Of a stretch of DNA of 64,000 bases, positions 7,575-55,018 are shown one piece after another. Each line of letters starts with the position of its first letter. Position 1 is the first letter of the stretch. Source of the DNA: Longimicrobiales bacterium (GTDB lineage Bacteria; Gemmatimonadota; Gemmatimonadetes; Longimicrobiales; Gaopeijiaceae); contig OZ241892.1 of NCBI GenBank assembly GCA_965203485.1, positions 3,456,001-3,520,000 on the forward strand, given 5' to 3'. The position numbers and the translations under genes are program-made. The notes beneath the pieces are model-generated. The model saw only the letters and a list, made by a program, of their open reading frames with translations, was not told the DNA's origin and did not search any database.

Positions 7575-7677
7575 GCGCGGGCGGCGCCCCGCTCGTCAGG
7601 TCGGCCCATCCGATTCTGCTCCGTTTGGGTTGTGCCTGCGCCCGGCCGCGCGCGTGAGGACGACAGCAATCCCCAAA

Positions 7678-8532: not shown

Positions 8533-8564
8533 GCTCCGTAGAGAATAGCTTATCGTTACACGTC

Positions 8565-11525
8565 ATGAACGGAATTCGATTCGACGGCCCGAACGCCGCC
8601 TACGTGCAGGAACTGCTGGAGGAGTTCGCCCGCAATCCCCAGGGTGTGCCGCCCGAGTGGCAAGCCCTGTTCCGCAACGGTCGGGACGACGTGCGCGACG
8701 CTGGGCTCTTGCCTCCGGAGGCGTGGAACGGTCGGCGCGGCCGGGACGCCGCCCCGGCGCCTTCCCGTCGCGCCCCGGACGAGACCGCGAGAGCGTCCTC
8801 GCCGCCGCCCGTCCGCGCTTCGAGCGTCGTTGCGTCGCGCCCGCCGAGCGCCCCGTCGCCCGCGCCGGAGCCCCCGCTCGAGCCCTCGGCTCCGTCCCTC
8901 GCCGCCGAATCGGCCCCCGGCACGCCCCCCGCGCTGGACGGCCTTCTGCCGCTCGTCGCCCGCGCCGCCAACCTCCTGCAGGCGTTCCGCGAGCACGGCC
9001 ACCAAGCCGCCCGCATCGACCCGCTCGGCAGCGAGCCGCCGGGCCACCCGCAGCTCGACCCCGCCTACTTCGGCACGACGATGGACGAGCTGGCGGCCAT
9101 CCCGGCGTCCGTGCTCTTCCCCGGGGCCGGCGACGACTCTCTCGCCGCCACGCTCGGCCGCCTGAAGTCCACGTACAGCGGCGCGCTGGGCTACGAGTTC
9201 GAGCACCTGGAGGACCCGAAGAAGGTCGAGTGGCTGTGGGACCAGGTGGAACGCGGCACGCACTTCGCCGGCCTCGCGGACGAGGACCGGTTGCGCGCCC
9301 TGGAGCGCCTGACGCAGGTCGAAGGGCTGGAACAGTTCCTCCATCGCGCCTACCTGGGCCAGAAGCGCTTCTCCATCGAAGGCACCGACATGCTCGTGCC
9401 CATGCTCGACGAAGCGATCGAGCAGTCGGCCGAGAACGGCGCCGCGGAAGTGGTCATCGGCATGGCGCACAGGGGCCGCTTGAACGTCCTGGCGCACGTG
9501 CTCGGCGTCCCCTACGGCGAACTCCTGGGCGAGTTCGAGGGCCAGACCAGCCCCGGGAGCGCGCTCTGGGTGCCCGACCCGGGAACCGGCGACGTCAAGT
9601 ACCACCACGGAGCCGCGCACGACTACGAGTTGCGAACCGGCCGGTCCGTGCGCGTGCGGCTCGCGCCCAACCCGAGCCACTTGGAGTACGTCAACCCGGT
9701 GATCCTGGGCATGACGCGCATCAGCCAGCATCCCGACGGCGAGAGCGACGCGTCCCGCGACCCCGATCGCGTCGTGCCCGTCCTGATTCACGGCGACGCG
9801 GCCTTCGCGGCCGAGGGGGTCGTGGCCGAGACGCTCAACCTGGCCCGCCTGCGGGGCTACGAAGTGGGCGGCGCTATCCATGTCATCGCCAACAACCAGA
9901 TCGGGTTCACGACCAATCCGGCGGAGGGCCGCTCGACCCGCTATTCGAGCGACTTGGCGAAGGGCTACGACATCCCGGTCGTCCACGCCAACGGCGACAA
10001 GCCGGAGGAGTGCCTGGCCGCCGTGCGCTTGGCGATGGCGTACCGGGCGCGATTCCACGACGACATCGTGATCGACTTGGTCGGCTACCGGCGCCACGGA
10101 CACAACGAGGGAGACGAGCCCGCCTACACGCAGCCCGAGCTCTACGCGCGGATCGCCGAACACGCGACGACGCGATCGCTTTGGGCCGACGAACTGGTCG
10201 AGCGCGGCCTGATCACGCGCGAGAAGGCGGACGAGCAGGCCGAGGAAATGCAGGCGCGTCTTCGGGACATCCAGGACGCGCGCAAGGAGTCGTCCGCGGA
10301 CAGGACGCCGATGCCGTGGACGCATCCGGACTTCGGCGTGGTCGAGCAGGACAGCGAGCCCTACACCCAGGTGTCGCTCGAACGGATCGAGCGCCTCAAC
10401 GCGACGCTGCTCGAACGCCCGGACGGCTTCACCGTGCATCCCAAGCTGAAGCGCCAGCTGGACAAGCGCGGCGGCGGATTCGGTCCCGACTTTCAGCTCG
10501 ACTGGGGTCACGCCGAGGCGCTGGCGGTCGCCTCGCTGCTGGACGACGGAATTCCGGTCCGCCTGTCGGGACAGGACTCCGAGCGCGGCACCTTCAGCCA
10601 TCGCCACTTCGTGCTCAACGACGCGCGCACCGGCGCCCGGTTCACGCCGCTCGCGAACGTGAGCGACACGCGCTTCGAGGTCCACAACTCGCCGCTCACC
10701 GAGGCGGCGGTGATCGGGTTCGAGTACGGGGCGGCGGTGGCGGCGGACCGCGACTTGGTGGTCTGGGAGGCGCAGTTCGGGGACTTCGTGAACGTCGCCC
10801 AGGTCATGATCGACCAGTTCCTGTCGGCGGGCTGGTCCAAGTGGGGACAGCGCTCCCGGCTCACGCTGCTGCTTCCGCACGGCTACGAGGGCCAGGGACC
10901 GGAGCACTCGAGCGCCAGGCTGGAGCGCTTCCTTCAGCTGTGCGCCGAAGACAACATGCGCGTCGTGTATCCCACCACGCCGGCCCAGCTCTTCCATCTG
11001 CTGCGCTTTCAGGCTTTGGTCGAGCCCGAGCGGCCGTTGATCGTCATGTCGCCCAAGAGCCTCCTGCGCCACCCCTCCGCCAAGTCGTCCGTGCGCGAAC
11101 TGGCGGAGGCGGGCTTTCGCAGGGTCATCGACGACTCCGCCGTAGGGGTGAAGAACGCAGACCGGATTCGGCGGCTGCTCCTCTGTTCCGGCAAGGTGTA
11201 CTACGACTTGGTGGGATCGGAGCTCCGGGGGCGGGCCGCGACCACCGCGATTGCGCGCGTCGAGTCGCTGTATCCCTTCCCGGACGACGAGATCCGGGCC
11301 CTCGACGACCGCTACCCGAACGTCGACGAAGTGATTTGGGTGCAGGAGGAGCCCGCGAACATGGGGGCGCTGTCGTATGCGAAGCCGCAGCTCGACGAGG
11401 CGTTCGGCACCGCCGTCCGGATCGGGTCCGTCTCTCGTCCGGGCCGCGCCAGCCCCGCGGCCGGCAACTTGGGGTCGCACGCCAAGGAACAAAGCCGCAT
11501 CTTGCGGAACGCGCTGGGCGGCTGA
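8565..11525 (+). CDS. sucA: 2-oxoglutarate dehydrogenase E1 component
   Basis: MNGIRFDGPNAAYV start; KRFSIEG, GMAHRGRLN, GDVKYH, HGDAAF (ThDP motif), GHNEGDEP, WEAQFGDF, GPEHSSAR. Confidence 0.95.
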   Translation: MNGIRFDGPNAAYVQELLEEFARNPQGVPPEWQALFRNGRDDVRDAGLLPPEAWNGRRGRDAAPAPSRRAPDETARASSPPPVRASSVVASRPPSAPSPAPEPPLEPSAPSLAAESAPGTPPALDGLLPLVARAANLLQAFREHGHQAARIDPLGSEPPGHPQLDPAYFGTTMDELAAIPASVLFPGAGDDSLAATLGRLKSTYSGALGYEFEHLEDPKKVEWLWDQVERGTHFAGLADEDRLRALERLTQVEGLEQFLHRAYLGQKRFSIEGTDMLVPMLDEAIEQSAENGAAEVVIGMAHRGRLNVLAHVLGVPYGELLGEFEGQTSPGSALWVPDPGTGDVKYHHGAAHDYELRTGRSVRVRLAPNPSHLEYVNPVILGMTRISQHPDGESDASRDPDRVVPVLIHGDAAFAAEGVVAETLNLARLRGYEVGGAIHVIANNQIGFTTNPAEGRSTRYSSDLAKGYDIPVVHANGDKPEECLAAVRLAMAYRARFHDDIVIDLVGYRRHGHNEGDEPAYTQPELYARIAEHATTRSLWADELVERGLITREKADEQAEEMQARLRDIQDARKESSADRTPMPWTHPDFGVVEQDSEPYTQVSLERIERLNATLLERPDGFTVHPKLKRQLDKRGGGFGPDFQLDWGHAEALAVASLLDDGIPVRLSGQDSERGTFSHRHFVLNDARTGARFTPLANVSDTRFEVHNSPLTEAAVIGFEYGAAVAADRDLVVWEAQFGDFVNVAQVMIDQFLSAGWSKWGQRSRLTLLLPHGYEGQGPEHSSARLERFLQLCAEDNMRVVYPTTPAQLFHLLRFQALVEPERPLIVMSPKSLLRHPSAKSSVRELAEAGFRRVIDDSAVGVKNADRIRRLLLCSGKVYYDLVGSELRGRAATTAIARVESLYPFPDDEIRALDDRYPNVDEVIWVQEEPANMGALSYAKPQLDEAFGTAVRIGSVSRPGRASPAAGNLGSHAKEQSRILRNALGG

Positions 11526-30265: not shown

Positions 30266-30422
30266 GGCGGTTGGCGTGGCTGGAAAGGAGCCGATCCGGG
30301 TCCGGGGCCGGGCGCGCCAAAGTTGCGGCGCCGGGCCTCCGTCCACCATACTACCGTCCGAATCCATCCACGACACCCCGGCCCTGCCTTTCGGCGGCGC
30401 CCCGACCCCCGGACGTCCCCCC

Positions 30423-31691
30423 ATGGAATACAATCCCGACCTCCCCTGGTACCGGCGGCTTCACTGGCAGGTCGCCGCCGCCATGCTCCTCGGTGCGCTC
30501 GTCGGTGGCTTCGGCGGCGAGTCGGCGGCCGAAGCGCTGGGCTGGATCGGCGACCTCTTCATGCGCCTCCTGCGGATGATCATCGTGCCTCTGGTGCTCA
30601 CGTCGATCGTGTCCGGCGTGGCGTCCGTGGGCGGAGGGCGGGCCATCGGGCGGCTCTTCAGCAAGACGCTGGGCTACTACGTCACGTCGAGCCTGCTGGC
30701 GGCGTGCGTGGGCGTGCTGATGTTCAACCTGTGGAGTCCGGGCAGCGGCGCCGACCTGAGCGCGGCGGCCCAGGAGGAGTTGCCGCAACTCGACACGCCG
30801 ACCGGCATCGACCTGCTCCTGAACGTCGTGCCGCGCAACTTCATCGATGCGATGGCGTCCGGCGACATGCTGGCGATCATCTTCTTCTGCATCGTCTTCG
30901 GGGCCGCCGTCACGACCCTGCCCGAAAAGCCGCGCACGCTGGTCACCGACATCTTCGAGTCGTTCTTCAAGGTCATGATGAACCTCACGTCGGGGATCAT
31001 CAAGTTCCTTCCCATCGGCGTGTTCGCGCTGATCACGCGGATGGTCGGCAACACGGGCTTGGACGCGTTCGCCCCGCTGCTCAAGTACGTGGGCACCCTG
31101 GGCTCGGGCTTGGCGATCCACTTCTTGGTCACTCTGCCGCTTCTGCTGATGTTCGTGGGCCGGATCAATCCGTGGATTCACCTGCGCAACATGCGCAACG
31201 CTCTAGTCACGGCGTTCTCGACGAGTTCGTCGGCGGCGACGCTCCCCGTGACGATCGACTCGGTCCGTTCGAAGGTCGGCGTGTCCAACAAGGTGTCGTC
31301 GTTCGTGTTGCCGATGGGCGCCACGGTGAACATGGACGGCACCGCGGTGTTCGAGTGCATCGGCGCATTGTTCATCGCGCAGGCGCTGGGCATCGAGATT
31401 ACCGTCATGCAGCAGTTCCTGGTCGTCGCCACCGCGTTGCTGGCGTCCATCGGGGCCGCGGCGGTGCCGTCGGCGGGCTTGGTGATCATCTTCATCGTGC
31501 TGGACGTGATCGGCCTGGGCGACAATGCGAACGCCACGGCAATCGTGGGAATGATGCTGGCCATCGACCGCCCGCTCGACATGTGCCGCACCGCCGTCAA
31601 CGTCTACAGCGATTCGTGCGGCGCGGCGATCATCGCGCGTTCGGAGGGCGAAGAGGGGGTGGACGCGGAAGTGCAGGGACAGGTGGCGTGA
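30423..31691 (+). CDS. Dicarboxylate/amino acid:cation symporter (DAACS)
   Basis: AFSTSSSAATLP, GATVNMDGT, SIGAAAVP, DMCRTAVN. Confidence 0.93.
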   Translation: MEYNPDLPWYRRLHWQVAAAMLLGALVGGFGGESAAEALGWIGDLFMRLLRMIIVPLVLTSIVSGVASVGGGRAIGRLFSKTLGYYVTSSLLAACVGVLMFNLWSPGSGADLSAAAQEELPQLDTPTGIDLLLNVVPRNFIDAMASGDMLAIIFFCIVFGAAVTTLPEKPRTLVTDIFESFFKVMMNLTSGIIKFLPIGVFALITRMVGNTGLDAFAPLLKYVGTLGSGLAIHFLVTLPLLLMFVGRINPWIHLRNMRNALVTAFSTSSSAATLPVTIDSVRSKVGVSNKVSSFVLPMGATVNMDGTAVFECIGALFIAQALGIEITVMQQFLVVATALLASIGAAAVPSAGLVIIFIVLDVIGLGDNANATAIVGMMLAIDRPLDMCRTAVNVYSDSCGAAIIARSEGEEGVDAEVQGQVA

Positions 31692-31755: not shown

Positions 31756-33051
31756 TTGGCCAAGGCCAGTAGGTTGCTAGTCTCCTTCGCCGTTACGAAC
31801 TGGGCCTGCTTCCGGGATCGGCAGGAACTCTCCGCCGAGGCCGTGGGCCGGACTGGCGACGCTTTCGCGTTCGACACGGGCGTACGCCGGATTCCTCGGC
31901 TCAATCGCGTGACCGCCGTCTACGGCGCCAACGGCAGCGGCAAGTCGCGCTTGTTGCAAGCGTTGGGATTTATGAAGGAATACGTCGTGGGTTCTGCGAA
32001 GAAGGGTCAGGCGGGAGACGACATCGGCGTCGTGCCATTTCTCTTCGACGCGAAGACGAGGAAGCAACCAACAGTCTTTGAAGCCTGTTTCATCACCAAC
32101 GACGGGATCGTGTATGATTATGCGTTCTCAGTAGACGACAGGCGGGTCCACGAAGAACGACTGTCGTGTTGGATGCCTGGGAGCCGCAGACGCGGATTAT
32201 TGCACCGCAAGTATGACACGGTAACCGCAGTAGAAGAATGGCGTTTCGGCGCAGCGGTTCGGGGCCCAAAATCTGTTTGGCGATCCAGCACGCGTGAGAA
32301 TGCACTCCTTGTTTCGGTGGCCGCGCAACTGAACAGCGATACGTTTCGCCCGGTCGTCGATTGGTTTCAGCGTTTGGGTTTTGTCACGCCTAAATATCCA
32401 GGTCCTACGTACACGGCATCGAGAATTGCCGTTGAAGATGAATTCCGAATAAGAGTGATGAACCTACTTCGAGACGCAGACATTCACGGCGACGCTCTCG
32501 AAACTCGAAAAACGAGCGTTGCGGTAGATGATATCCGTCCTCATGTGGCACCAAGCTTGCTGAAGCAAGTGATTGAAAAAGGCAAATCCACATTCGACGT
32601 GATCGATACTAGCATCGTGCACCCCGTGGCTGGTGATGCCACGCCGTGTGCATTGGACATGACTGAAGAATCGGATGGAACTCAAAGACTCTTTTTGCTG
32701 GCTGGACCTTGGCTCGATGTGCTTGACAACGATCGCATCGTAATTGTTGATGAACTGGACAGCAGTCTGCATCCGTTGTTGGTGACGGCGTTGGTGAGAA
32801 AGATCAACGAAGGGAACGGAAGACCTGGCCGGGCACAGCTCGTGGCAACGCTTCACGACGTGTCGCTATTGCGCGGTGTTTTCCATAGAGGTCAAATTTG
32901 GCTTGCTGAGAAGACGAGGAACACTGGCGCGTGCAGGATTAAGGCGTTGTCCGATTATCGTCGCCGCCGTAAGGAGGAAGTCATGACTGACTACCTAGAA
33001 GGACGATTTGGAGGCGTACCAGTGATTGCCGGATCGAATTCGGCGGATTGA
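31756..33051 (+). CDS. ABC-type ATPase (RloA/AAA_21-like)
   Basis: YGANGSGKS Walker A, ESDGT signature, IVDELDSSLHP Walker B, ATLHD H-loop, YLEGRFGGVP terminus. The start could be TTG 31774. Confidence 0.85.
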   Translation: MAKASRLLVSFAVTNWACFRDRQELSAEAVGRTGDAFAFDTGVRRIPRLNRVTAVYGANGSGKSRLLQALGFMKEYVVGSAKKGQAGDDIGVVPFLFDAKTRKQPTVFEACFITNDGIVYDYAFSVDDRRVHEERLSCWMPGSRRRGLLHRKYDTVTAVEEWRFGAAVRGPKSVWRSSTRENALLVSVAAQLNSDTFRPVVDWFQRLGFVTPKYPGPTYTASRIAVEDEFRIRVMNLLRDADIHGDALETRKTSVAVDDIRPHVAPSLLKQVIEKGKSTFDVIDTSIVHPVAGDATPCALDMTEESDGTQRLFLLAGPWLDVLDNDRIVIVDELDSSLHPLLVTALVRKINEGNGRPGRAQLVATLHDVSLLRGVFHRGQIWLAEKTRNTGACRIKALSDYRRRRKEEVMTDYLEGRFGGVPVIAGSNSAD

Positions 33052-33071
33052 AATCACTGCTGAGGATATAA

Positions 33072-33707
33072 GTGAGCAAGAAGCGACGACGGTGGGGAAG
33101 ACGAGCGGCGACCAAGGACGTTGCACCACGGATACTTATATTGTGCGAAGGAGCAAAAACGGAAATCACGTACTTCAACGCAATCAAGAGATCTCTTCAA
33201 ATTCCAAGCATGGATATCAAGCACTGCAAAGGAGTGAAAGGTGTGGTGGCGTATGTGAGTGACGACAAGATAGGAAATTTTAATGAGATATGGTGCGTTG
33301 TGGATCACGATGAGAGATATGAAGATGTACGAGTTTTGATTGATCGCATAGAAATGATACGCAAACGACGCCGAAAGCGATACGAATTGAACAGAATAGA
33401 GACGATCATATCCATCCCATGCTTCGAATACTGGTTACTACTTCATTTCGAAAACATCACCAGAGCATATAGAGGACTCCCAGGCAGGTCCGCATGCAAA
33501 CAAGTAACGAAGCAATTGGAAAAGCACTTGCCTGGCTACGATAAGGCGGATCCTCATATCTACGACGTTTGCTACGACTACTTGGAAACGGCAATTGAGC
33601 GTGCGAAGAAGAACCGCGAGCCTTCGCATTCCTCGACTGATGTGTGGAAGCTGATCGAACGGCTTCAGAATATGGTGCGTGATGACACGTGTGGCGTTGA
33701 TCACTAA
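33072..33707 (+). CDS. rloB: RloB-family protein
   Basis: ILILCEGAKTEITYF, IWCVVDHD, SIPCFEYWLLLHF, YDK, AIERAK, STDVWKLI. Confidence 0.85.
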   Translation: MSKKRRRWGRRAATKDVAPRILILCEGAKTEITYFNAIKRSLQIPSMDIKHCKGVKGVVAYVSDDKIGNFNEIWCVVDHDERYEDVRVLIDRIEMIRKRRRKRYELNRIETIISIPCFEYWLLLHFENITRAYRGLPGRSACKQVTKQLEKHLPGYDKADPHIYDVCYDYLETAIERAKKNREPSHSSTDVWKLIERLQNMVRDDTCGVDH

Positions 33708-33724
33708 TCCATGCATCGTCTCCG

Positions 33725-36136
33725 ATGCTACTTGCTGGGCTTGGTTTGAGAGGACGGCGCCAGTTTCCGCTGAGCGATTCCATTAGGGAGCGCCTGCGCC
33801 TGGGCAGGACGCTCTTCGTTCATCGGTGGCACGCCGCGCAGACGATCGGGGAATGGTGCGGCAACGACTCGGTCGGCGAGCGCTTCGAGCACATCAACCA
33901 CGCCCGGTCGCTGGCGGAGTACGTCTGGAGTTGCGGCCCATTCAAGGAAGACGCCGACGGTTCGGGGCGAGTCGCGCTTGACGGGGACGGCCTGAAGGCC
34001 ATCGTCGCGCCGGTGGCCAGGAAGGGGCGGTCGGTTTTGTCGACCGCGGTGCGTCATGCGGCGACGCTCGGGAGCGACGCGCGGGCGGGCTCCGGTCCCT
34101 TGGACGCGGGCACGCAGCAGTTCGCAACCCGCCTGCTCGGCTTGCACCGGGCCATGCTTCCGTACTACGTCGAGATGCGGTACTTGACGCCGGCGCAGGC
34201 CGAGGGCTTTCGCCGTGGGCCGGTTCCGTTGTTCGAGCCGTTGCTGGCGGCGAACGGGCGGGCTCGCGAGGGAACCGACACCTCGGAGTTGCCGGAGGAC
34301 TTGGTGGCGGCGCTTCAGCGCGCCTTCGCGGTGAACATCTACAGGGCATTGGCTTGCCGCGCACGGGCGGAACTGTTCGAGACCGTGGTCCGGAGTCATC
34401 CGCGGGGAGCGCGTTTCGCAACCGTGGCCACGGGACGCGCGTCGAGGTTCGTCGTCGCGGCGGGTGCGCTGGTGGACGGCGTGCACCGCCAGTTCGTGAT
34501 CCGCGACAAGGCGCTGGCTTCGATGTTGCAGAGCATCGACGAGCCGCCGTTTCCCGCCGTGTTCCGCTGGCTCGCGGCCTTCAAGACGTTCGTGTCCACG
34601 ACGATCACGGCGATGCCCGTGTTCATAGTCAAGAATTTCTTCCGCGACACGCTGGCCGGGTTCGTGGCGGGCCGGTACTTCCAGTGGCCGTTTCTTGGCA
34701 CGCTTGCGGGCGGTTGCCACGCCTTGCACGACATGGCGACGAAACGGTCGCGCACCATGCGCGAGTACCTCCTCCAGGGTGGTTTCTACTCCGGGCTCGT
34801 GGAATCGGAGACGGACTTGGGCCCAACGCGGAACGAGAGGGGCGCGATCCGCCACGCCGTCGTGGCCAAGCGGAAGTGTGGCCTTCTCGTCCACGTATTG
34901 ACTCGTCCCGCATGGCTCGCCGAGGCGGGGACCCGCGTCAACCAGTTTCAGCGAGCGCGGAGGGCCGGCGCGACCAACTACGCCGCGGCCCGGGCCGCGC
35001 GGATGGTGTCCTCGGACTTCGCCAACATCGGGGCATCGAGACCTTGGCGAATGTACGTCCACACGGTTCCGTTCCTGAACGCCGCCATCCAGGGAATCGA
35101 CCAGCTCTACCAAATCGTTCGCTGTCGCTTCCGCGCGGAGCCGTCGGCGCGCAAGTGGAACCTCGAGCAGCGCCGCCACGTCCGCAAGATGATGCTGGCC
35201 GGCCTCTGTCTCGCCGGCGCCAGCTGGGCCGCGTGGAGGTACAACACGTCCGATCCCGCCCGCGTGGCCGCCTACGAAGCCGAGACGGAGTACGACAAGG
35301 CGTCGTGGGTGACCCTGTACGACATTGCCGGCGACGCCGATCTTCGAATCCCCGTGCCGTTCCAGATCGGCGCGGCTTTCGTCAAGGTGCCGGAGATCGC
35401 CTTCGACTTGGCGGCGGGAACCGAGACGCTCGCGGGGATCAGGTTCGCGTGGTCGCTGGTGCACGGCAATCTGTGGATGGGCTGGAAGCCGGCCGTGGTC
35501 CAACCCGTCATCGAAGTCTACACGAACCGCAACTTCTTCGGTTCGGAGATCATTCCGTCCTACATGAGAAACTGGCCGCCCGAGGACCAGTACTTTCATC
35601 GGTCGACGCCGCTCCCGTATCGTCACGCCGGCGAGCGGATCGGCGTCTCGCCGCTGCACGTGCAGACGTTTTGGCGAAGTTGGACGGGCCATCTGGGCAA
35701 CGCAACGGTCGTCTTCCTGGACGAACAGCTGTGGGACGAGACTGAGAACGGACCCAAGCCGTTCTTGCGGACGAAGCGGTTGCTCACCGGCTTGTACAGC
35801 CTTCAGGCGCCCCTGCCGCGCACCTACACGCGCTACGGCGACGAGTTCTACGAAATCGCCGACTGGGCCGACGCCAACGTCCGGGGCCAGAACTGCCGCA
35901 ACGCTTCCAGCCTGACGCCCGAAGCCGCGAGCGAGTGCCGGGCCAACACGCTGACCAACCGAGTGGCTAGAGAAGCCTCCCGCCTGCGCAGAGCAGGCGA
36001 CGACGTGCGCACGGATCGCACCAGGAGTCGCGCAGCCAAGGAAGCCGCGCTGATCGCCATCTACGAGGAGATCGACGACGGCTTCCGCGCGATCCTGCCG
36101 GAGCTGAGGGAGTTGCGCCGCAACGGCGGCGGATGA
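33725..36136 (+). CDS. Stand-alone LPD38-domain protein (C-terminal part of phage large polyvalent proteins)
   Basis: T..P.FIVKNFFRD, E..TR...F, DF..IG, PFLNAAIQG, RIPVPFQIG...KVPE, P.V.PVIE..TNRNFFG..I.P, SP..V.....SWTG..G. Confidence 0.7.
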   Translation: MLLAGLGLRGRRQFPLSDSIRERLRLGRTLFVHRWHAAQTIGEWCGNDSVGERFEHINHARSLAEYVWSCGPFKEDADGSGRVALDGDGLKAIVAPVARKGRSVLSTAVRHAATLGSDARAGSGPLDAGTQQFATRLLGLHRAMLPYYVEMRYLTPAQAEGFRRGPVPLFEPLLAANGRAREGTDTSELPEDLVAALQRAFAVNIYRALACRARAELFETVVRSHPRGARFATVATGRASRFVVAAGALVDGVHRQFVIRDKALASMLQSIDEPPFPAVFRWLAAFKTFVSTTITAMPVFIVKNFFRDTLAGFVAGRYFQWPFLGTLAGGCHALHDMATKRSRTMREYLLQGGFYSGLVESETDLGPTRNERGAIRHAVVAKRKCGLLVHVLTRPAWLAEAGTRVNQFQRARRAGATNYAAARAARMVSSDFANIGASRPWRMYVHTVPFLNAAIQGIDQLYQIVRCRFRAEPSARKWNLEQRRHVRKMMLAGLCLAGASWAAWRYNTSDPARVAAYEAETEYDKASWVTLYDIAGDADLRIPVPFQIGAAFVKVPEIAFDLAAGTETLAGIRFAWSLVHGNLWMGWKPAVVQPVIEVYTNRNFFGSEIIPSYMRNWPPEDQYFHRSTPLPYRHAGERIGVSPLHVQTFWRSWTGHLGNATVVFLDEQLWDETENGPKPFLRTKRLLTGLYSLQAPLPRTYTRYGDEFYEIADWADANVRGQNCRNASSLTPEAASECRANTLTNRVAREASRLRRAGDDVRTDRTRSRAAKEAALIAIYEEIDDGFRAILPELRELRRNGGG

Positions 36137-36197: not shown

Positions 36198-37688
36198 CTA
36201 CGAGACTTCCCATCCAGCTCTGTACTCCCGCGTCAGCCACTGATTTGCCGCTTCCACGTTGGCAATGCGCATCGCCTCGCCGTCGTAGTGGATTTCCCGG
36301 CCTTGGCCCGCGCGCAACGCGACTATGCCCAGCAGCATGATTTCGGTGAGCCGGGAGCCGTAGTCGAACGGACAGGACGCGGCGCCGCCGGTCTTGCAGG
36401 CGTTCACCCAGTTCATCTGGTGCGACTCCCCTATGCGCGGCAGCGTCTGGGGCACGTCTTCGGCCTGGGCCGCCAGCCGCTCCGGGTATATCCTGGGGTC
36501 CTGGCCGTAGGTCTCGTGAAGCAGCAGGCCGTCGCGACCGGCGAAAATGACGCCGCCCGTCCGGTTCAGTTCGACGTCGGCGGGAAGCGCGGCCGGACGG
36601 GGAGGCATCAGGCCGCCGTCGTACCAGTGCAGGTCCACGGGCGGAGCGGCGCCGCGGGCGGGGAAGCGGAAGTGGGCGCGCATGGCGAGGGGGAACGTCG
36701 CGGGGTCTTCCTCCGGGCCGCCCCAGGGCGTCGACGTGGCTTCGACGCTCGTCGGATAGCCGAGGTCGAGCGCCCACACGGGATGATCGAACAGGTGCGC
36801 TCCCATGTCGCCCAGCGCGCTCACGCCGAAGTCCACCCAGCCGCGCCAGTTGAAGGGATGGTACACGGGATGGAACGGGACGTCCTTGGTCGTTGGGCCG
36901 AGATAGAGGTCCCAGTCCATGCCCGGGGCCTTTGGATAGTCGGCGTTCATTACGTCGGCGGCCAGCGACAGGATCGCGCCTTGGTGCCATTGCTGGTACC
37001 AGCCCGGATTCAGTCCTTCTTCCCATTGCGCCGGACGAAGGACGCCCTGCGGCCAGATGGGCCGGTTGGTCCAGATGTGGACCTCCGCGACCGGGCCGAG
37101 GACGCCTGCCTGAATCCACTCGACGACGCGGCGCCCGTCGTCCCAGGAATGCCCCATGGCGCCCATCTGCGTGACGACGCCCGTGCGGCGCGCGATGCGG
37201 TCCAGCGCGCGCGCCTCCTGTACCGTGAAGGTGAGCGGCTTCTCGAGATAGATGTGCTTGCCGGCCTCCATGACGGCCTTCGCGATCGGAGCGTGCAAGT
37301 GGTCCGGCGTGGCGACGACCACCGCGTCCAAATCGCTCTCCATGGCCAGCAGCTCCCGGAAGTCCACGTACTGGCGCGCTTGAAGGAACTGTTCGCGCCA
37401 ACGGTGCGCCTTCGCCCGGCGTTCGGGATCGTCGTCCTCGAGGAACTCGGTGGAGCGCCGGTGCACGATGCCGAAGTCCACGTCGCATACCGCCACGATC
37501 CGCTCCGAGCCCAGCTCGAATCCGTTCTCCACTCCCTGGCCGCCGGTGCCGATCACGGCGATGTTGAGCTGGTCCGACGGGGCCTGCCGACTCGGGCCGC
37601 CCACGACGCGCGCCGGAACCACCATCGCGCCCATCGCCATCTTCGACCCGCGGTCGACGAAGCCCCGGCGGCTCAGTTGCTCGGACAT
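36198..37688 (-). CDS. Gfo/Idh/MocA oxidoreductase, Tat-exported
   Basis: SRRGF Tat motif, IGTGGQG, ATPDHLH, EKPL, GDMGAH. Confidence 0.92.
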
Positions 37689-42254: not shown

Positions 42255-42545
42255 TGCCATCATCCACCACACTCCGCCGAGGCGCGTCCGCATGCCGAAC
42301 GGGATGGGCCTGTTGCCGCAGATGACCTGCAGGCTCGACTTCTACGCCGCTAGCGAGTGCGCACCCGGTCGATACCGGGTCGACGCTTTAGGGCTGTCAT
42401 TCGCAGCCGAATTTGTCGACCCTCCAGAACCACCTCGGCGAACAGTAGTTTTCGCCCTTCGAGCACAACGCCACCGTTGCGCACTCCTTCCAGTTGCCAC
42501 ACCGGTAACCGGAGAACGACGCGTATCAACGACGGATTAAGCCCA

Positions 42546-45009
42546 ATGAAGACATCCTCTTTTTCCGTTCGCCTGTTCTATAGCTATTCTCACAAGGACG
42601 CTCAATACCGAGATGCCATGGAAGATGCCCTCAGTTTGCTCAGAACCCAGGGGCATTTGACACAGTGGTCGGATAAAAACATTCTGCCCGGTCATAGAAT
42701 CTCAACGACTATTGGGCAGGAAATGGAGCAAGTCGATATTGTCGTTTTCTTAATCAGCAATTCATTTTTGGCATCAGATGAATGCATGAAAGAATGGAAG
42801 CGAGCCAAAACGATGCACGTTGCTTCCCACCGACCACTTCGTGTTCCGATTATCGTCAGCACATGTGCGTGGAAGGATTTGCTTGTCGAAGACGATATAA
42901 AGGTGTTGCCGAATGACGGAAAGCCCGTGAAGACGTTTAGCGATTCTGATGCGGCATGGAGCCAAGTATATGAAGGCATTAAATCACTCATTGACAGCTT
43001 GCGAGCGGATTTTTCGCCAAAGACCCGATTTATGACACAACTGCGGAATATTGATGATGTCGTCGTTTCACAACGAACAAGTACGCTAGATGACCTCTTT
43101 GTATTTCTCCCGCTATCAAACTACCAGCCTAGCAAGATTGAAAGGCACGCAGTTGACGAAAAAACCATAACGAACTTAGACAATCTTTTGCGATTGGGTC
43201 ACATCCTTATCCACGGCGACGACCAAAGTGGCAAGACGGCGCTTGGCCGGTACATCGTTTTGTCGCTGATCAATAAGGCGCAGCCTGTCCTTCTTGTCGA
43301 TCTGCAAGTGGTTAAGATAGCTAGTGATATTCGATGATGTTCTAGCAAAGGTATATCATGATCAATTTCGTGGCGATTACATGAAGTGGCGCGACTACCA
43401 ACACACAACCATTGTGCTCGACAATCTGTCGTCCAAGCCTGCATCGATACCCTTCCTGACTGCTGTCCTGAGCAGATTCGATAACGTTGTTGTGTTAGCA
43501 TCCACCAACACATATGTGTCTTATTACCGCGATGACGCCCGCTTGGCGACGTGCACTATTTTGCAGATTTCTCCGCTCACACACGTCTTGCAAGAAGAAT
43601 TGATTCGAAAACGACTTGCCTTGATGAGTAACAGCACGGTGTATGACGGTGCCGTTGATCAAATAGAAAAGCGAGTCAATGCTATCATTAACACTAGAAT
43701 ATTGCCACGATATCCGTTCTATGTTCTATCGATTCTTCAGACACTTGAAGCATTCATGCCACGAGATATGGCGGTTACATCACATGGTCATTGCTACTAC
43801 ATCTTTATTGTAGCAAGACTAATGAATGCAGGCATTTCCAGGGGTGATGAAGCCATCAATGTGTGCTTAAATTTTGCGGAACAATTGGCGTTTGCTATTT
43901 ACAGTCATAACTCGACCGAGCAACATTCGTTTTCCCGATCGGCGTTTGATCGGTTTGTCGCTGACTATAAGAAGCAATATGTCTTGCCAGACTCTATTCG
44001 GCACAGATTGATTGGTCGAGATTATGGCATTTTGGCCGATGACGGCAGATTCCAGCATCCCTACATGTACTATTTCTTTCTCGGGCGGTACTTGGCCGCG
44101 CACGAAGACAATCAAATAATTGAGCAAATGTGTCGGGACAGCCATGTGTCGGAAAACCATTTGACGTTGCTTTTTATAATACATCACGCGACAAATGATG
44201 AAATAATTGAAGAAATCCTGATCAGAACGATGTGTTCATTGGACAACATTCCGCCAGCGCGTTTGAATCCGGAAGAAACAAAACGGTTTCGAAGTATCGT
44301 TGCGCGATTACCGACTGACATCCTTTCTGGTCGTTCAGTGGAGGACGAGCGAAAAGCCGACCGACGTACACGTGACGGTGACGACAACGAAAATGAAGTG
44401 GACAATAGATCCGATCATTCGGTTAATCGAATGATATACCAAATATTGAAGAACAACGAACTGTTGGGTCAGGTATTAAAGGTGAGATATGGCAAGCTCA
44501 CCAAAGGACAAATATCAGATATTGTTGAATCGATTGCAGACAGTGGACTACGGCTCGTGAACGTGTTGCTGAGCGACGAAGACGATATATCCGAGTTAGC
44601 GCGATATTTGCACGCCCGTGTCCCCAATTTATCTGAATCGAGAATCAAGAAATTGTTGCAGGGAATGTCGTTCGTGTGGACAATGATCAATATTGAACTT
44701 GTGGTGAATGCCGTGTCACACAAGGATATCGCACCAATAGTTCGCGATCTGGTTGAGAAGAGAGCAAATCCAGCTTATGACGTGATCGGATTTTTCTGCG
44801 CCTTGGATAGTGCAAATGAATTGACGTCGAACTTGCGAAGAGAACTGAGGAAGCTACTGAAGCGGCACGACGATTCGTTTGTTCGAGGCGTATTGTCGCT
44901 CAGAGTACAACATTATATGAATACACATAGGAGTAGTGCAAAAATCGAACAAGGCATTTGCGCGGATCTTGGAATAAGATATCGACATCGCATTATGGCG
45001 GCACAATAG
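42546..45009 (+). pseudogene. TIR domain + P-loop (STAND-like) NTPase, split by a frameshift near 43330
   Basis: ORF1 42546-43337 has TIR (LFYSYSHKD, FLISNSFLASDECMKEW, VPII) and Walker A GDDQSGKT. ORF2 43324-45009 has Walker B-like IVLDN and FQHPYMYYFFLGRYL. Removing one base fuses them into about 820 aa. Confidence 0.75.
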
Positions 45010-48100: not shown

Positions 48101-49201
48101 TTCACCTTCGATGACACCGACACGAATGGGGTCGCGACACCGATTGCCGAGTTGGACCAGCTGGTCGAGGAGAACCCGGGCAACAAGGACGTGATCTTTC
48201 CGTACATCGGCGGCAAGGAACTCAACACCAGCCCGACGCACGCGCACCATCGGTACGTCATTAACTTCCGCGACTGGCCGCTTCGCCGAGACGACATCGG
48301 CGAGACGTGGAAGGAAGCGGACGATCATCGACGCAAGGAGTTGCGACGCCAACCCGTAGTGCCGAGTGACTATCCCGATCCCGTGGCCGCGGACTGGCCG
48401 GAACTGCTGGACATTGTGAGGAACAAGGTCAAGCCACGACGCGCTCATTTGACGCGCAACCCTATCGGGAGAAGGCGGGCGACGTACTGGTGGCAGTATG
48501 GTTCATCAGCGACACAACTCTATGCGGCGACTGCACGCAAGCAACGCGTGCTGGCCATCAACTGCGGCGCAACCCCGCATCATGCCTTCACGTTTCTTCC
48601 GATCCGCATGGTCTTCGCCCACGTACTTGCCGTCTTCCCCCTCGACACCCACGCTGCCTTCTGCACCCTCCAGTCTCGCGTCCACGAGATTTGGGCGCGC
48701 TTCTTCGGCTCGTCCCTTGAGGATCGACTCCGCTACACCCCCTCCGACATCTTCGAGACCTTCCCGTTTCCAAATAAGTGGGAGACCCATCCGTCCCTCG
48801 AAGCCGCCGGCAAGGCGTACTCCGACTTCCGCGCCGACCTCATGGTCCGCAACGCCAAGGGTCTCACCAAGACCTACAACCACTTCCACGATCCCAACGA
48901 GGCCGCTCCGAAAATCGTCCAGCTCCGCGACCTCCACGCCGCCATGGACAGGGCGGTCCTCGACGCCTACGGCTGGACCGACGTCCCCACGGACTGCGAT
49001 TTCGTGCTCGACTACGAGATCGACGAGGAGGAATGGGGCCGCAAGAAGAAGCCGTACCGCTACCGCTGGCCGGACAACGTGCGCGACGATGTCCTCGCAC
49101 GCCTTCTCGAACTCAACGGCCAACGCGCCGCCGAGGAAGCCGCCGCCTGCAAGGCCGGACGCGACGAGGCCACCCGTTCGCGGCCCGGGAAGCGCCGATG
49201 A
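45179..49201 (+). CDS. drmMI: DISARM N6-adenine methyltransferase DrmMI (type IIG-like)
   Basis: HLEWLGFVRPTGLVVS, GSHYTP, CDPAMGSGAFL, YGVD, IVGNPPF. Confidence 0.9.
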   Translation: MAKVNPDIATHLEWLGFVRPTGLVVSPTTLVRAGAILQRRDNEGQARLKECLATEATGAGVLAFSRFREFANKVLDWSFSPKGYAGTADAPVPRELEVVMPDTGRAVRPHYAVRMGRDEAEWQLLVLVCERGRDFDASQARSAAAQDTMERLLRGTGAPAGILFNGEALRLVSAPKGESSGWLDFRVADMVETAGRPICAAMRLLLGETRLLSVAKDKRLAALMAESRKFQNEVSQDLSGQVLHALYELLRGFQAAHDGSGRKLLETPLRENPDEVYRGLLTLVLRLIFLLYAEERDMLPQDEVFLGGYSVAGLHKRLREDAALHPDTMDQRYGAYAQLLFLFRMVHDGVRIDTMILPPRHGVLFDPDRYPFLEGRGAQVAGGRQVHERIEPPRVSDGAVYRVLEKLLVLNGERISYRALDVEHIGSVYETMMGFRLETAKGRSVAIKAEGKHGAPATVDLDALLAQPSDKRVEWVRDRTDRKLTDKVANAVRQAGAIEALHAAVAPVVDSVATPDLIARGSMILQPSKERRSTGSHYTPRELTEPIVRDALKPVLDRLSAETGGSPTPDQVLALKVCDPAMGSGAFLVEACRQLGAALVDAWHAADAVPDGLEGEDELVFARREVARRCLYGVDRNPIAVDLAKMSLWLATLAKGLPLTFLDHALRHGDSLVGLTKRQIGAFHWDEKAPALQLGFEADRAKDDLDRVRDMRRRIREAGDGVSDRKLRAVLGEAMSATASVRRTGDLVLAAYFDEAKPKKREARRVELAACVAEGRAEEYTSWLDEQRDADPPLAPFHWEIEFPEVFERDAPGFDAIVGNPPFAGKNSMANANVRHYPLWLKQAHQQSHGNADLVAHFFRRSFDLIRPNGTFGLIATNTIGQGDTRSTGLRWICQHGGEIFKATTRVKWPGMAAVVVSVVHVAKGRASSQRFLDKRPVERITAFLFHRGGHGDPAQLKANARKSFVGSYVLGMGFTFDDTDTNGVATPIAELDQLVEENPGNKDVIFPYIGGKELNTSPTHAHHRYVINFRDWPLRRDDIGETWKEADDHRRKELRRQPVVPSDYPDPVAADWPELLDIVRNKVKPRRAHLTRNPIGRRRATYWWQYGSSATQLYAATARKQRVLAINCGATPHHAFTFLPIRMVFAHVLAVFPLDTHAAFCTLQSRVHEIWARFFGSSLEDRLRYTPSDIFETFPFPNKWETHPSLEAAGKAYSDFRADLMVRNAKGLTKTYNHFHDPNEAAPKIVQLRDLHAAMDRAVLDAYGWTDVPTDCDFVLDYEIDEEEWGRKKKPYRYRWPDNVRDDVLARLLELNGQRAAEEAAACKAGRDEATRSRPGKRR

Positions 49202-50415
49202 ACGCGCCATCCGCCGACCGCCGCCTCGTAACCCGAGCAAGAGTCCGCAACTACCGCAACATCGCGGCCTGCGACGTGGAGCTGGCCCAACTGTCGTTGG
49301 TCGTGGGCCCCAACGGAGCCGGCAAGAGCAACTTCCTGGACGCGGTTGGCTTGGTGGGGGACTGTCTTCGCTCGTCGTTGAGCGACGCCCTTCGGCGGCG
49401 AGGCGGCGCCAGAGAGATTGCACGGCGGACGTCCGGTCGGGCAAAGCACTTCGGGATCCGTCTTGACTACAACCTTGGAGTCGGCACGGGGCATTACGCC
49501 GTTTCCTTGGGCGCGGGCCGAGACGGCAAGCTCGACGTCCGGAGAGAGGAATGCCGGCTGGTTCGCGGGGTCGAAGCCCACTTCTGCGCACTCGATCACG
49601 GTCGGGTAAGGGAGTGCACTGTTTCGCATCCTCCGCCCGCGCCCCAGGATGACCTTTACCTCGTGCGTCTGGCGTCCGTGCCCGAATTCCGCCCCGTCTA
49701 CGATGCGTTGTCGGATGTGTGCGTCTATCGGCTCAATCCGGACGCGATCCGCGAGCTGCATGAACCCGAGCAGGGCCTTCTACGATCTGACGGACGCAAT
49801 GTGGCAAGCGTATTGGAAGCCATCAAGCGTCGGTCTCCAAAGACCAAGGAACGACTGGATCGATACCTGCAAGCCGTGGTGCCGGAGTTGGCGGCCGTGG
49901 ACAAGCTGGCCTTGGGTCCCTGGCGCACGCTTGCGTTCAAGAAGGTGGTGCGCGAGGGAGCGCGGCACCGACGATTCCTGGCACGAGACATGTCCGACGG
50001 CACGCTCAGGATCGTGGGCGTGCTGGCGGCCTTGCTCCAGGGCACCGGCGCAAACGTTGCTCGCCACGGCCTAGTATGCCTGGAAGAGCCGGAGGCGGCC
50101 CTTCATCCGGGCGCGCTCGAGGTTCTGTTGGACATGTTGGCGGACGGAGCGGAGAGGACACAGGTGGTCGTGACCAGCCAAAGCGCCGACCTGCTGGATC
50201 ACAAGCAGATATCCGTGGACTCCATCGTGGTCGTCGGGTCGGACGAGGCCGGCGGGCGCCTCGGTCCCATCGACGAAGCCGGCAGATCGGTGATCGAGAA
50301 CGGCAACTTCACCGCGGGCGAACTGATGAGAATGGAGCAACTTCTGCCGGACGAGAAGGCGTCGCGCCTGCGTCCGTCCCAGGTCTCCCTGTTCGGCGCA
50401 CCAAGGTCGCGATGA
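49198..50415 (+). CDS. ABC-type ATPase (AAA_21)
   Basis: VGPNGAGKSN, MSDGTLR, LEEPEAALHP, VTSQS; ATGA overlap with the drmMI stop. Confidence 0.88.
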   Translation: MNAPSADRRLVTRARVRNYRNIAACDVELAQLSLVVGPNGAGKSNFLDAVGLVGDCLRSSLSDALRRRGGAREIARRTSGRAKHFGIRLDYNLGVGTGHYAVSLGAGRDGKLDVRREECRLVRGVEAHFCALDHGRVRECTVSHPPPAPQDDLYLVRLASVPEFRPVYDALSDVCVYRLNPDAIRELHEPEQGLLRSDGRNVASVLEAIKRRSPKTKERLDRYLQAVVPELAAVDKLALGPWRTLAFKKVVREGARHRRFLARDMSDGTLRIVGVLAALLQGTGANVARHGLVCLEEPEAALHPGALEVLLDMLADGAERTQVVVTSQSADLLDHKQISVDSIVVVGSDEAGGRLGPIDEAGRSVIENGNFTAGELMRMEQLLPDEKASRLRPSQVSLFGAPRSR

Positions 50416-51020
50416 CTCTCGACGTCGCGGTCGTCGTCGAAGGGAAGGGCGAGACGTTGGCCGTGCCGGTGCTCTTGCGCAGGATCGCCGCTGTTGTGAC
50501 GCCCGGCCTCGACCTGAGGATCGACGTTCTGAGACGAGGAAGGCAACAGGTCGTCAAGAAGCCGCACTTCGAGAAGTCCATCGACTTGGCCGCCCGGCGC
50601 GTCGGGCCGAAAGGGGTGATTCTGGTCCTGCTGGACGCCGACACCGATTGCCCGGCGGAGCTGGGGCCGCAGTTGGTCCGGCGCGCCGCGAGAGCCCGCC
50701 CTGATCGAGTCACGCGCGTGGTCCTCGCCAAGTCGGAGTACGAAGCGTGGTTTCTCGCGTCGGCCGGATCGCTGGCGGGAAAGCACGGAATGCGGGTGGA
50801 CCTGACTGCTCCGGCAGATCCGGAGAGCATCCGGGATGCCAAGGGATGGCTGAGCCGCCATCAAGCAGACGAGCGATCGTATCGGCCCTCGGTGCACCAG
50901 ACGTCGCTCACGGCGGCCTTCGACATGGCGGCCGCAAGATCCGCGCCGTCGTTCGACAAGCTGTGGCGCGACGTGGCAACCGAGTTGCGCTTGCGCTACC
51001 GCGGAGGCCCGAATCTGTAG
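50412..51020 (+). CDS. DUF4276-family (TOPRIM-like) protein
   Basis: VVEGKGE, LLDADTDCP, EYEAWFLA, DAKGWL, SFDKL; ATGA coupling to the ATPase. Confidence 0.8.
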   Translation: MTLDVAVVVEGKGETLAVPVLLRRIAAVVTPGLDLRIDVLRRGRQQVVKKPHFEKSIDLAARRVGPKGVILVLLDADTDCPAELGPQLVRRAARARPDRVTRVVLAKSEYEAWFLASAGSLAGKHGMRVDLTAPADPESIRDAKGWLSRHQADERSYRPSVHQTSLTAAFDMAAARSAPSFDKLWRDVATELRLRYRGGPNL

Positions 51021-53899: not shown

Positions 53900-54235
53900 C
53901 TATTGGGAACGTCGCCTGACAACCCTGCGTCCTGCGGCCTCCAACAGCTCGTCGCCGGTGTCGCAATCGACCACGGCGTCCCCGACCCGAGCCAGCTCGT
54001 CGGCGCCCATCCCCTCGACCAGTCCCTCTAGCTGTTGCGCCGTCTCCGCGCCGAACCGTCGCGAGGCCAGCCGCAACACCATCGCTTGGCGCTCCTCCGT
54101 CCGTCCCCGCTCCAGCCCCCTTTCCATGCCGCGCTCCATGCCACGCTTTATGCCGCGTTCCATGCCGCGCTTCATGCCCCGCTTCCATCCCCGCTGTTCG
54201 TGGCCTCTTGCCCAGTCGTCGTAGGTCTCGCTCAT
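53900..54235 (-). CDS. Predicted in-frame internal product RpnS (111 aa)
   Basis: GGGAGGAGAAGACGAC-ATG strong RBS immediately before MSETYDDW, at the start of the repeat domain. Confidence 0.6.
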   Translation of the reverse strand: MSETYDDWARGHEQRGWKRGMKRGMERGIKRGMERGMERGLERGRTEERQAMVLRLASRRFGAETAQQLEGLVEGMGADELARVGDAVVDCDTGDELLEAAGRRVVRRRSQ

Positions 54236-55018
54236 GTCGTCTTCTCCTCCCGGTTGGATGATCCACCGCACGGCTTGCCGCCGACGCTCCTCCGGTCCCC
54301 GTGCGGCTCGCAACCGCTCGCCGGTCCAGACGGCCAGCGCCTTGCGCAAGTCCGAGTGCTCGGGGCCGCCCCAGCGCTTCGCCAAGCTTCGGCGAACCCT
54401 CGGCAGGCTCGTCCAAGGAGCCGTCTCCATCGCCGCGATCCAGCCGAGCAGGCTGTCGCTGGGAAGCAAGTGTTGCGCGAAGGCCGACTGCAAGTCAAGC
54501 ACGCGGTGGCCGTGGGCGTGCAGCCAGTCGCCCCTCAGGCAATGCGTTGCTTCCGCCAGCGAGGGCGCCCGTCTGCGGGCGAGTTCAGTCAATGTTGGGA
54601 CGGCGCTCCAGGGCTGCCCGCCGGAGTGGACGACGATGGACATCGTGTGCGGCATGGCGCGGCCCGGGTCGAGCAGGCTGGGATAGCGATGAAACACGAG
54701 GTGCGCCGCTTGGCTGTAGCTCATGGTGCGGAAGACCATGTCGTGATCCACGGATGACTGGAACTCGACGAGAAAGACGACCGATGCTCGGCCGTCCTTG
54801 AACCAAGCCCGCCATGCGCAGTCGCCGAGCTGGCGCTTCAGGTCCGGGCTGACGGTCTCGGTGGCGAACGGCTCGACGGTCGAGAGGTCGAGCGCGTGGC
54901 TCCAGCCCTTGGCGGCGAAGTCGCGGATCAGGTCGGTGGCGGCCTGGGCGTGCGAGAACAGGAGCTTGTAGGTCTGGTCGTGCCTGCGCGACTCGGGCTC
55001 TTGGGCGGGGCGGTCCAT
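53900..55018 (-). CDS. Rpn/YhgA-family recombination-promoting nuclease (PD-(D/E)XK)
   Basis: HDQTYKLLFSH, LDLSTVE, LGD, LVEFQS, variable GxxR repeats, RLASRRFG C-terminal module. Confidence 0.88.
   Translation of the reverse strand: MDRPAQEPESRRHDQTYKLLFSHAQAATDLIRDFAAKGWSHALDLSTVEPFATETVSPDLKRQLGDCAWRAWFKDGRASVVFLVEFQSSVDHDMVFRTMSYSQAAHLVFHRYPSLLDPGRAMPHTMSIVVHSGGQPWSAVPTLTELARRRAPSLAEATHCLRGDWLHAHGHRVLDLQSAFAQHLLPSDSLLGWIAAMETAPWTSLPRVRRSLAKRWGGPEHSDLRKALAVWTGERLRAARGPEERRRQAVRWIIQPGGEDDMSETYDDWARGHEQRGWKRGMKRGMERGIKRGMERGMERGLERGRTEERQAMVLRLASRRFGAETAQQLEGLVEGMGADELARVGDAVVDCDTGDELLEAAGRRVVRRRSQ
54106..54195. repeat. 12-bp tandem repeat inside rpn (GWKR-GMKR-GMER-GIKR-GMER-GMER-GLER)
   Basis: TTCCATGCCGCG-like units, seven copies visible in the translation. 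Confidence 0.85.

Follow-up and report, generated by a model that had tools for sequence, protein, structure and literature searches.

Giant phage proteins of the LPD38 kind are thought to be injected together with the DNA. LPD38 is normally a C-terminal part of large polyvalent proteins of phages (Iyer et al. 2017, PMC5512222). According to a preprint, the LPD38 protein of phage PTXU04 was needed for efficient infection (bioRxiv 2023.09.18.558157), and the LPD38 giants of phi24B and JC1 were virion-associated. SieA blocks phage P22 through the ejection proteins of this phage (PMC10883804). AbiL and RloAB were described as systems of an ABC ATPase together with a TOPRIM protein akin to PARIS, with a mechanism that is assumed (PMC13064643 and PMC10440598). 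In a Longimicrobiales bacterium (GCA_965203485.1), an rloAB pair and a gene for a stand-alone LPD38 protein lie side by side in the window, which here means the whole stretch of 64,000 nucleotides analysed (contig OZ241892.1, positions 3,456,001 to 3,520,000). By sequence comparison, the LPD38 gene is a member of a conserved bacterial family of 750-970 residues, which keeps only the C-terminal module of ~800 residues of the phage giants, and it very probably forms a unit separate from rloAB, with both sharing one variable chromosomal slot. No description of such a stand-alone bacterial LPD38 family was found in the literature searched, while rloAB is of an already known kind. The genes of the slot and its two host flanks, which stand outside the system, are as follows.

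30357..31691, + strand: DAACS transporter, the host flank to the left of the variable slot (PF00375; syntenic in the congeners G001 and G002)
31756..33051, + strand: rloA, AbiLi-type ABC (SMC-like) ATPase of 431 aa (PF13304, PADLOC AbiLi, motifs, orthologue in G002)
33072..33707, + strand: rloB, AbiLii-type TOPRIM-like nuclease of 211 aa (PF13707, PADLOC AbiLii, motifs)
33725..36136, + strand: stand-alone protein of the LPD38 module, with 803 aa if read from the first ATG (PF18857, AlphaFold2, Foldseek)
36198..37688, - strand: GFO/IDH/MocA oxidoreductase, the host flank to the right of the variable slot (PF01408; syntenic in G001 and G002)

As a sequence-only reading of this DNA had claimed, the three open reading frames (ORFs) were co-oriented with gaps of 20 and 17 bp and were flanked by the transporter and the convergent oxidoreductase. 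Contigs from four sequencing runs of one study spanned the stretch and showed no differences in the three genes. The 17-bp gap presupposes a start at the ATG of 33725; with a TTG in the same frame (33746) the gap would be 38 bp, and with a CTG (33770) it would be 62 bp. The true gap may be 62 bp, since DNA similarity to G001 starts at CTG 33770, and this codon aligns with the starts of the closest relatives, a GTG in G001 and the Met of P0002, a protein of 81% identity. The protein would then have 788 aa. No terminator-like site was found in the gap between rloB and the LPD38 gene, and promoter and terminator scans gave results at chance level.

The LPD38 call was borne out by a match to PF18857 at residues 516-666 (E-value 4e-24, cut-off passed). 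A protein search over lengths of 441-1,406 aa gave 176 matches among 7,994 scored candidates, and the 119 best relatives were 54-84% identical with a median length of 831 aa. Longer proteins were searched separately, with 52 matches of 21-34% identity. When 1.84 billion representatives were searched with a profile, more forms of ~800 aa came up (P0173, P0175, P0181, P0184 and P0192); one of them, P0184, stands at the head of a second subfamily, with ~775 aa. In a FastTree tree of the C-terminal regions, 35 of 37 short rows fell on one side with support of 100, the two others, nested among long proteins, being probably fragments. IQ-TREE split 14 short from 18 long proteins with support of 100/100 and a branch of 0.78; both trees were unrooted, and their rows had been picked through a profile of the family. 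A C-terminal helix-hairpin-helix (HhH) DNA-binding domain was carried by 10 of 120 relatives. A subgroup with a C-terminal extension (L013, L092, L093 and L095; HhH domain in the matching proteins) had a divergent gene of metallo-beta-lactamase fold opposite the LPD38 gene at 3/4 sites. The pairing of an HhH DNA-binding protein with a nuclease resembles competence genes.

The AlphaFold2 model of the 803-aa protein was mostly helical, with a mean predicted local distance difference test score (pLDDT) of 82.8 and a predicted template modelling score (pTM) of 0.83. Foldseek matched it to 73 predicted viral structures at E <=0.001. The best matches were C-termini of polyvalent proteins, with template modelling (TM) scores of 0.70-0.75 over ~900 columns at 15-19% identity; that to the PTXU04 protein had a TM score of 0.71. 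Because the fold matches these phage C-termini over the full length, the whole modelled protein, beyond the 150-residue Pfam stretch, is taken as the conserved end module of the phage giants. Among solved structures there was no relative by sequence and no clear fold match (Foldseek PDB and VIA), the wide VIA search being filled up by C-terminal helices; a missing solved match does not imply a new fold. For a hub fold shared with T7 gp16-like ejection proteins the one sign was a weak match to the PhiM1 ejectosome (PDB 8VB2) at rank 41 of 50, below generic helical bundles. Model residues 28-379 were aligned to chain residues 558-998 with Z 4.9 and a root-mean-square deviation of 5.2 over 179 aligned residues. 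Judging from its length, this chain is presumably the tetrameric PhiM1 protein. The LPD38 protein had a net charge of +27 and no hydrophobic N-terminal stretch, as read from hydropathy and not from a signal-peptide predictor. It contained three moderately hydrophobic helices (279-306, 486-504 and 574-592), and the invariant charged residues R307, D308, E400, R404, R426 and D431 were common to the phage proteins. A homodimer prediction with residues 275-772 scored 0.00 and gave no answer.

At the order level, 31 of 401 genomes had a match; 28 of these held copies or pieces of the stand-alone clade, all in the family of the window genome, and the remaining three, the unpublished G185 among them, held weak matches including a protein of 2,070 aa. 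Presence was patchy within two genera (17/51 and 6/16 genomes), with up to three dispersed copies per genome. In an order of Acidobacteriota, 2 of 201 genomes had full copies, which were nested in the tree within the diversity of the window's family, and the source labels of relatives also named Gammaproteobacteria and Rhodospirillales. In the acidobacterial genome G463 (L181:6345-11327), the LPD38 gene came directly after a gene for a Ser/Thr kinase-TPR protein.

Selection on the family was estimated from the ratio of nonsynonymous to synonymous substitution rates (dN/dS), with a simple counting method in which pairs were kept if dS lay between 0.02 and 1. The median was 0.17 (0.13-0.54) for 180 of 435 pairs, and the window copy gave 0.20-0.39 at near-saturated dS. 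By these estimates the family is under purifying selection. Broken copies were seen in both congeners (G001 and G002), in G310, G320 and G305 and as the second copy in G089, and at the position of the homologous start the window has a CTG, as would suit a decaying prophage remnant with no function. Such a remnant is nevertheless very unlikely given the low dN/dS, the constant length across a deep clade, the lack of phage genes nearby and the 2.4-kb open frame of the window copy, in which the family-invariant residues are kept. The sequence-only reading had suspected a domesticated phage module stripped of its N-terminal enzymes, and this part of it stood: the module is kept in prophage-free DNA under purifying selection, the closest of the ~800-aa homologues collected are not full-length prophage proteins, and the window copy, by its dN/dS, is probably not evolving neutrally.

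The surroundings of the gene were examined at 31 sites of 6-62 kb, made up of 24 homologous loci, one metagenome contig and six further sites, with one contig of 2.4 kb and fragments at contig ends excluded. These sites are related to one another, so the counts from them are not independent. With a custom gene finder, 1,378 ORFs were called over the 31 sites and five comparison sites, and 158 cluster representatives of >=230 aa with no homologue in the window genome were cut to 520 residues and scanned. No terminase, portal or major capsid protein was present among these 158 accessory proteins from the 31 sites; three of them matched tail or structural families over short stretches, which probably reflects Ig-type or similar shared domains. 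In the window, no capsid, terminase, portal or integrase family occurred among the ORFs scanned (24 with Pfam and 33 with PHROGs, in overlapping sets, some small ORFs lying outside both), in agreement with the earlier claim. Of 26 LPD38-carrying genomes, three had terminase PF03237, placed either on another contig or at a distance of 690 kb; 5 of 14 controls had it too. The portal family PF12236 had no match anywhere, controls included, and is uninformative. Viral contigs (IMG/VR) contained no close relative, with 0 matches to a single query and 6 weak ones (23-25%) to a profile, and neither 50,697 phages nor 72,556 plasmids gave a match, close in the former case and of any kind in the latter.

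The sequence-only reading had proposed that rloA, rloB and the LPD38 gene form one system of three genes, with the LPD38 protein as a possible sensor of phage that activates the ATPase-nuclease pair. The linkage did not recur. At 24 homologous LPD38 loci from one-per-species genomes, with up to 10 kb on each side and several shortened by contig ends, rloA and rloB had no tblastn match (0/24); elsewhere these queries do pick up homologues that are 24-34% identical. When whole genomes were searched with PF13707, RloB turned up in 2 of the 26 that carry LPD38, namely the window's own and that of the congener G002; outside the genus the count was 0 of 23. RloB was present in 7 of 401 genomes of the phylum, and the five outside the genus each had an adjoining rloA; LPD38 had no match in these five, in a search set without a positive genome and with a profile that finds the window gene.

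The congeners hold one part each at the same slot. G002 has the order DAACS-rloA-rloB-oxidoreductase without LPD38, and its LPD38 gene lies in pieces 460 kb from the slot. In G001 the transporter is followed by a small ORF, the first ~120 codons of the LPD38 gene, two AT-rich ORFs and the oxidoreductase, and no RloB was found in this genome. Thus rloAB and LPD38 were gained and lost separately, as the slot comparison shows. The two AT-rich ORFs of G001 (199 and 263 aa, L033:10413-11730) overlap and stand in for most of the LPD38 gene; they had no match in Pfam, NCBIfam or PADLOC and matched one unnamed PHROG, and they are a candidate defence pair.

Base composition also sets the two units apart. 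The LPD38 gene has the host-like GC claimed for it (0.669, with 0.86 at third codon positions (GC3), in a genome of 69% GC), and rloB is indeed AT-richer than it (0.469, GC3 0.53), rloA having 0.551 and GC3 0.59. Both rloA and rloB are AT-rich relative to the genome: 1-kb genome windows equally poor in GC make up 1.5% for rloA, 0.2% for rloB and 22% for the LPD38 gene. A single three-gene system could be argued from the common orientation, the closeness of the genes and the lack of a terminator-like site before the LPD38 gene. What tells against separate units is that a minor related strain from the same study, ~85-87% identical, also joins the end of rloB to LPD38 (33664 to 33761, with 39 letters on the shorter arm and a depth of 26 compared with ~780), so the adjacency has, by this junction, lasted through about 13-15% sequence divergence. 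Another contig joins the end of the transporter to LPD38 and skips rloAB (30 letters, intervening sequence not read). As read from these contigs and loci, the adjacency is inherited at one site in close relatives and has no independent recurrence. With no linkage at the 24 loci or in the 23 genomes, five rloAB genomes without an LPD38 match, each part carried alone in the congeners and GC3 of 0.53-0.59 for rloAB against 0.86 for LPD38, one joint system is extremely unlikely and was dropped, the sensor role found no support, and the earlier caveat that the adjacency may be an incidental or later insertion is the better reading.

Taken by itself, rloAB is by its domains and motifs an ordinary AbiL/RloAB-type ATPase-nuclease pair in which nothing unusual was found, and abortive-infection activity is predicted for it. 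The product of rloA matched PF13304 (AAA_21, E-value 6e-31) and PADLOC AbiLi (2e-72), with a Walker A motif at 57, a signature-like motif at 305, Walker B at 328 and an H-loop at 364, and was 56.5% identical to its G002 orthologue at the same slot. The product of rloB matched PF13707 (E-value 6e-33, 115 bits against a cut-off of 31.5) and PADLOC AbiLii (1e-29), with the TOPRIM glutamate motif at 23 and DxD at 78, and was 41.7% identical to its G002 counterpart. The same two-gene unit, with rloA directly before rloB and no adjoining LPD38, exists in G002 and five other genomes of the phylum. By analogy with PARIS, the pair would act alone, a sensor ATPase releasing the TOPRIM nuclease. Between the window genome (G000) and G002, dS was 2.1 for rloA and saturated for rloB, compared with 0.63 in the case of the transporter; this hints that alleles were replaced at a variable slot. 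DNA similarity of the two genomes extends from the transporter into rloA, and GC drops along rloA (window 31756-32400) from ~0.7 at the 5' end to ~0.5 in both alike; possibly the 3' part of rloA and rloB were repeatedly replaced.

Two sets of genes accompany many relatives of the LPD38 gene, and one or the other was seen at 22 of 31 sites. The first is a divergent helix-turn-helix (HTH) gene with a gene for a 311-aa protein, head to head with LPD38, the 311-aa gene lying within 700 bp at 15/31 sites; of 29 upstream regions, 10 had a palindromic motif within this spacer. The second comprises chaperone genes within 3.5 kb at 14/31 sites, either for a J-domain protein or as a GrpE-like/Hsp70/kinase-AAA/TerB cassette; the likeness to GrpE and the membrane anchors of the chaperone-type proteins were read from the sequence, with no family match behind them. 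The 311-aa protein was considered as an obligate partner and rejected, because it was present in 86 of 401 order genomes (the unpublished G115 included), in most of them together with its HTH gene and with LPD38 absent. Since it is common without LPD38, the HTH-311aa pair looks like a borrowed regulator. The 311-aa protein had no match in PDB, Pfam, PHROGs, NCBIfam or PADLOC, and its fold prediction reached a pLDDT of 32. The pair (L003:8553-9873, L162-L180) also occurs on a Euzebya plasmid, with an operator-like palindrome in the LPD38-linked subgroup, and the ESM Atlas points weakly from the 311-aa protein to ubiquitin-fused fungal proteins. The cassette recurs at six LPD38 sites (L009:12502-20912, L010, L016, L019, L020 and L096), with a coiled-coil/membrane GrpE-like protein, Hsp70, a kinase-AAA fusion, TerB and a protein of 650-750 aa whose beginning is J-like. 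It corresponds to no PADLOC system model and may itself be a conflict system not yet described.

Other neighbours could reflect mobility. DUF932 (TIGR03299, a phage-plasmid gene) follows at 9 of 31 sites, a tyrosine integrase was present within the fetched DNA at 12/31, and NikA/MobC genes were present at some. Together with the dispersed copies, the cross-phylum spread and the HhH C-terminus of some relatives, this is what would be expected if the module served integrative mobilisable elements or satellites as cargo, packaged or delivered with their DNA, and the window copy were a stranded passenger. Such a cargo role is rather doubtful, however, as 19/31 sites are without such an integrase, no packaging genes were found among the accessory proteins, the plasmids gave no match and some copies sit among housekeeping genes. 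The window genome itself is without the integrase family, DUF932, HTH, TerB and 311-aa genes, and without the chaperone cassette.

For the LPD38 protein, some role against phages is judged about as probable as its opposite from the sequence comparisons. The protein behaves like a defence gene product in that a module-only copy, presumably cytoplasmic, is kept by selection and is patchy, mobile and often lost: the gene is multi-copy, often broken and moved across phyla, and the window copy has rloAB as its neighbour and a DISARM island 2.7 kb away. The form of such a role proposed here is a decoy, since the simplest way for the protein to act would be to join the phage's assembly as a subunit that does not work. 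The protein would be made in the cytoplasm and, during infection by a short-tailed phage of the LPD38 type, would co-assemble with the giant ejection protein of the phage or be packaged instead of it; progeny would then be missing the N-terminal enzymes or have no functional conduit for DNA. In many relatives the membrane-anchored DnaJ/GrpE/Hsp70 proteins would fold the LPD38 protein or restrain it, and its gene would be under the control of the divergent HTH pair, although the window copy has none of these chaperone or regulator partners. This decoy is offered tentatively, because identity to known phage proteins is low and the case for it comes from sequence and model. Equally tentative is the wider proposal that uncultured bacteria of several phyla use a domesticated packaging-ejection module of podophages as a decoy, spread with a regulator and membrane-anchored chaperones, with the family marking the boundary of the LPD38 module.

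Several observations weigh against a decoy. The nearest long phage proteins are 21-34% identical, which is low for co-assembly unless the target phages are unsampled, and the formation of a DNA conduit by LPD38 proteins is itself a proposal in the phi24B preprint. No PADLOC model matches the LPD38 protein. Most LPD38 sites are, from their gene content, not classic defence islands, because the matches among the 24 neighbours tested were few and of generic domains (kinase/AAA, PD-(D/E)XK, metallo-beta-lactamase and Sel1). In the ESM Atlas, three clusters of LPD38 proteins of 778-809 aa are 91-95% viral (recognition score below threshold), so that ordinary phage genes, or fragments, may be among the short LPD38 forms; the clusters may consist of fragments, split phage genes or relatives.

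The chaperones and the helices suit yet another mode of action, in which the protein is an abortive-infection effector whose channel-forming refolding is restrained by membrane-anchored Hsp70/DnaJ/GrpE and freed on infection, or blocks entry at the inner membrane by jamming the conduit as SieA does. The chaperone genes at 14/31 sites, whose J-domain and GrpE-like products look, from their sequences, anchored in the membrane, the three moderately hydrophobic conserved helices and the invariant charged residues shared with phage proteins would fit it, and SieA offers a precedent for blocking ejection proteins (PMC10883804). It is unlikely all the same, since 17/31 sites and the window genome have an intact gene without the cassette, hydropathy shows weak maxima (at most 1.64 in the family mean) and no channel structure matched. 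The probability that remains is left to functions not considered.

Further along the window there is a DISARM class I island (38847-62904) that also contains other defence genes, which starts 2.7 kb downstream of the LPD38 gene and was missed by the sequence-only reading. Its genes and the insertions in it are listed below.

drmD at 38847, drmMI at 45179, drmA at 55255, drmB at 58779 and drmC at 60882: DISARM genes
42357-43337: AT-rich gene for a TIR protein, inserted
43324-45009: STAND-like NTPase, inserted
49198-51020: pair of HEC-01-like ATPase and DUF4276
53900-55018: Rpn/YhgA-like transposase
61702-62904: C5 methyltransferase

At the other end of the window, a gene for a NAD-glutamate dehydrogenase of 1,636 aa (2664-7574, - strand) overlaps a long 5' extension of the plus-strand frame 6051-11525. 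The real gene in this frame, for 2-oxoglutarate dehydrogenase E1, starts near 8565; the overlap is an effect of high GC, and the genes themselves do not overlap.

LPD38 giants are common and virion-associated, and one was shown to be needed for infection. A selected bacterial family of their conserved C-terminal module alone is a natural construct of 800 residues, with a confident model, for work on structure and function; should it protect against phages, it would turn their own injection machinery into a means of defence.

Compared with known systems, the window rloAB pair shares with AbiL of Lactococcus and RloAB of Campylobacter the layout of ATPase then TOPRIM, the best PADLOC models (AbiLi and AbiLii) and the catalytic motifs. 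A cell-encoded protein that defeats a phage through its ejection proteins has a precedent in SieA of P22 (PMC10883804). The tetrameric ejection protein of PhiM1, which is T7 gp16-like (PDB 8VB2; PMC11440229), gave a weak structural alignment and is a lead only. The closest likeness is to the phage polyvalent proteins such as PTXU04 gp25, phi24B gp47 and JC1 gp69, with which the LPD38 protein shares PF18857 near the C-terminus. Similarity covers their last 550-860 residues and mostly ends a few dozen residues from the C-terminus, the predicted fold is shared over the whole query (TM 0.70-0.75), and the invariant core residues are kept. These proteins have 1,400-4,500 aa, whereas the LPD38 protein has ~800 aa, with a single Pfam family in its 803 residues and no N-terminal enzyme domains. 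In contrast to them, its family forms a separate branch outside virion operons and has its place in chromosomes and islands of bacteria, close to genes for regulators and chaperones.

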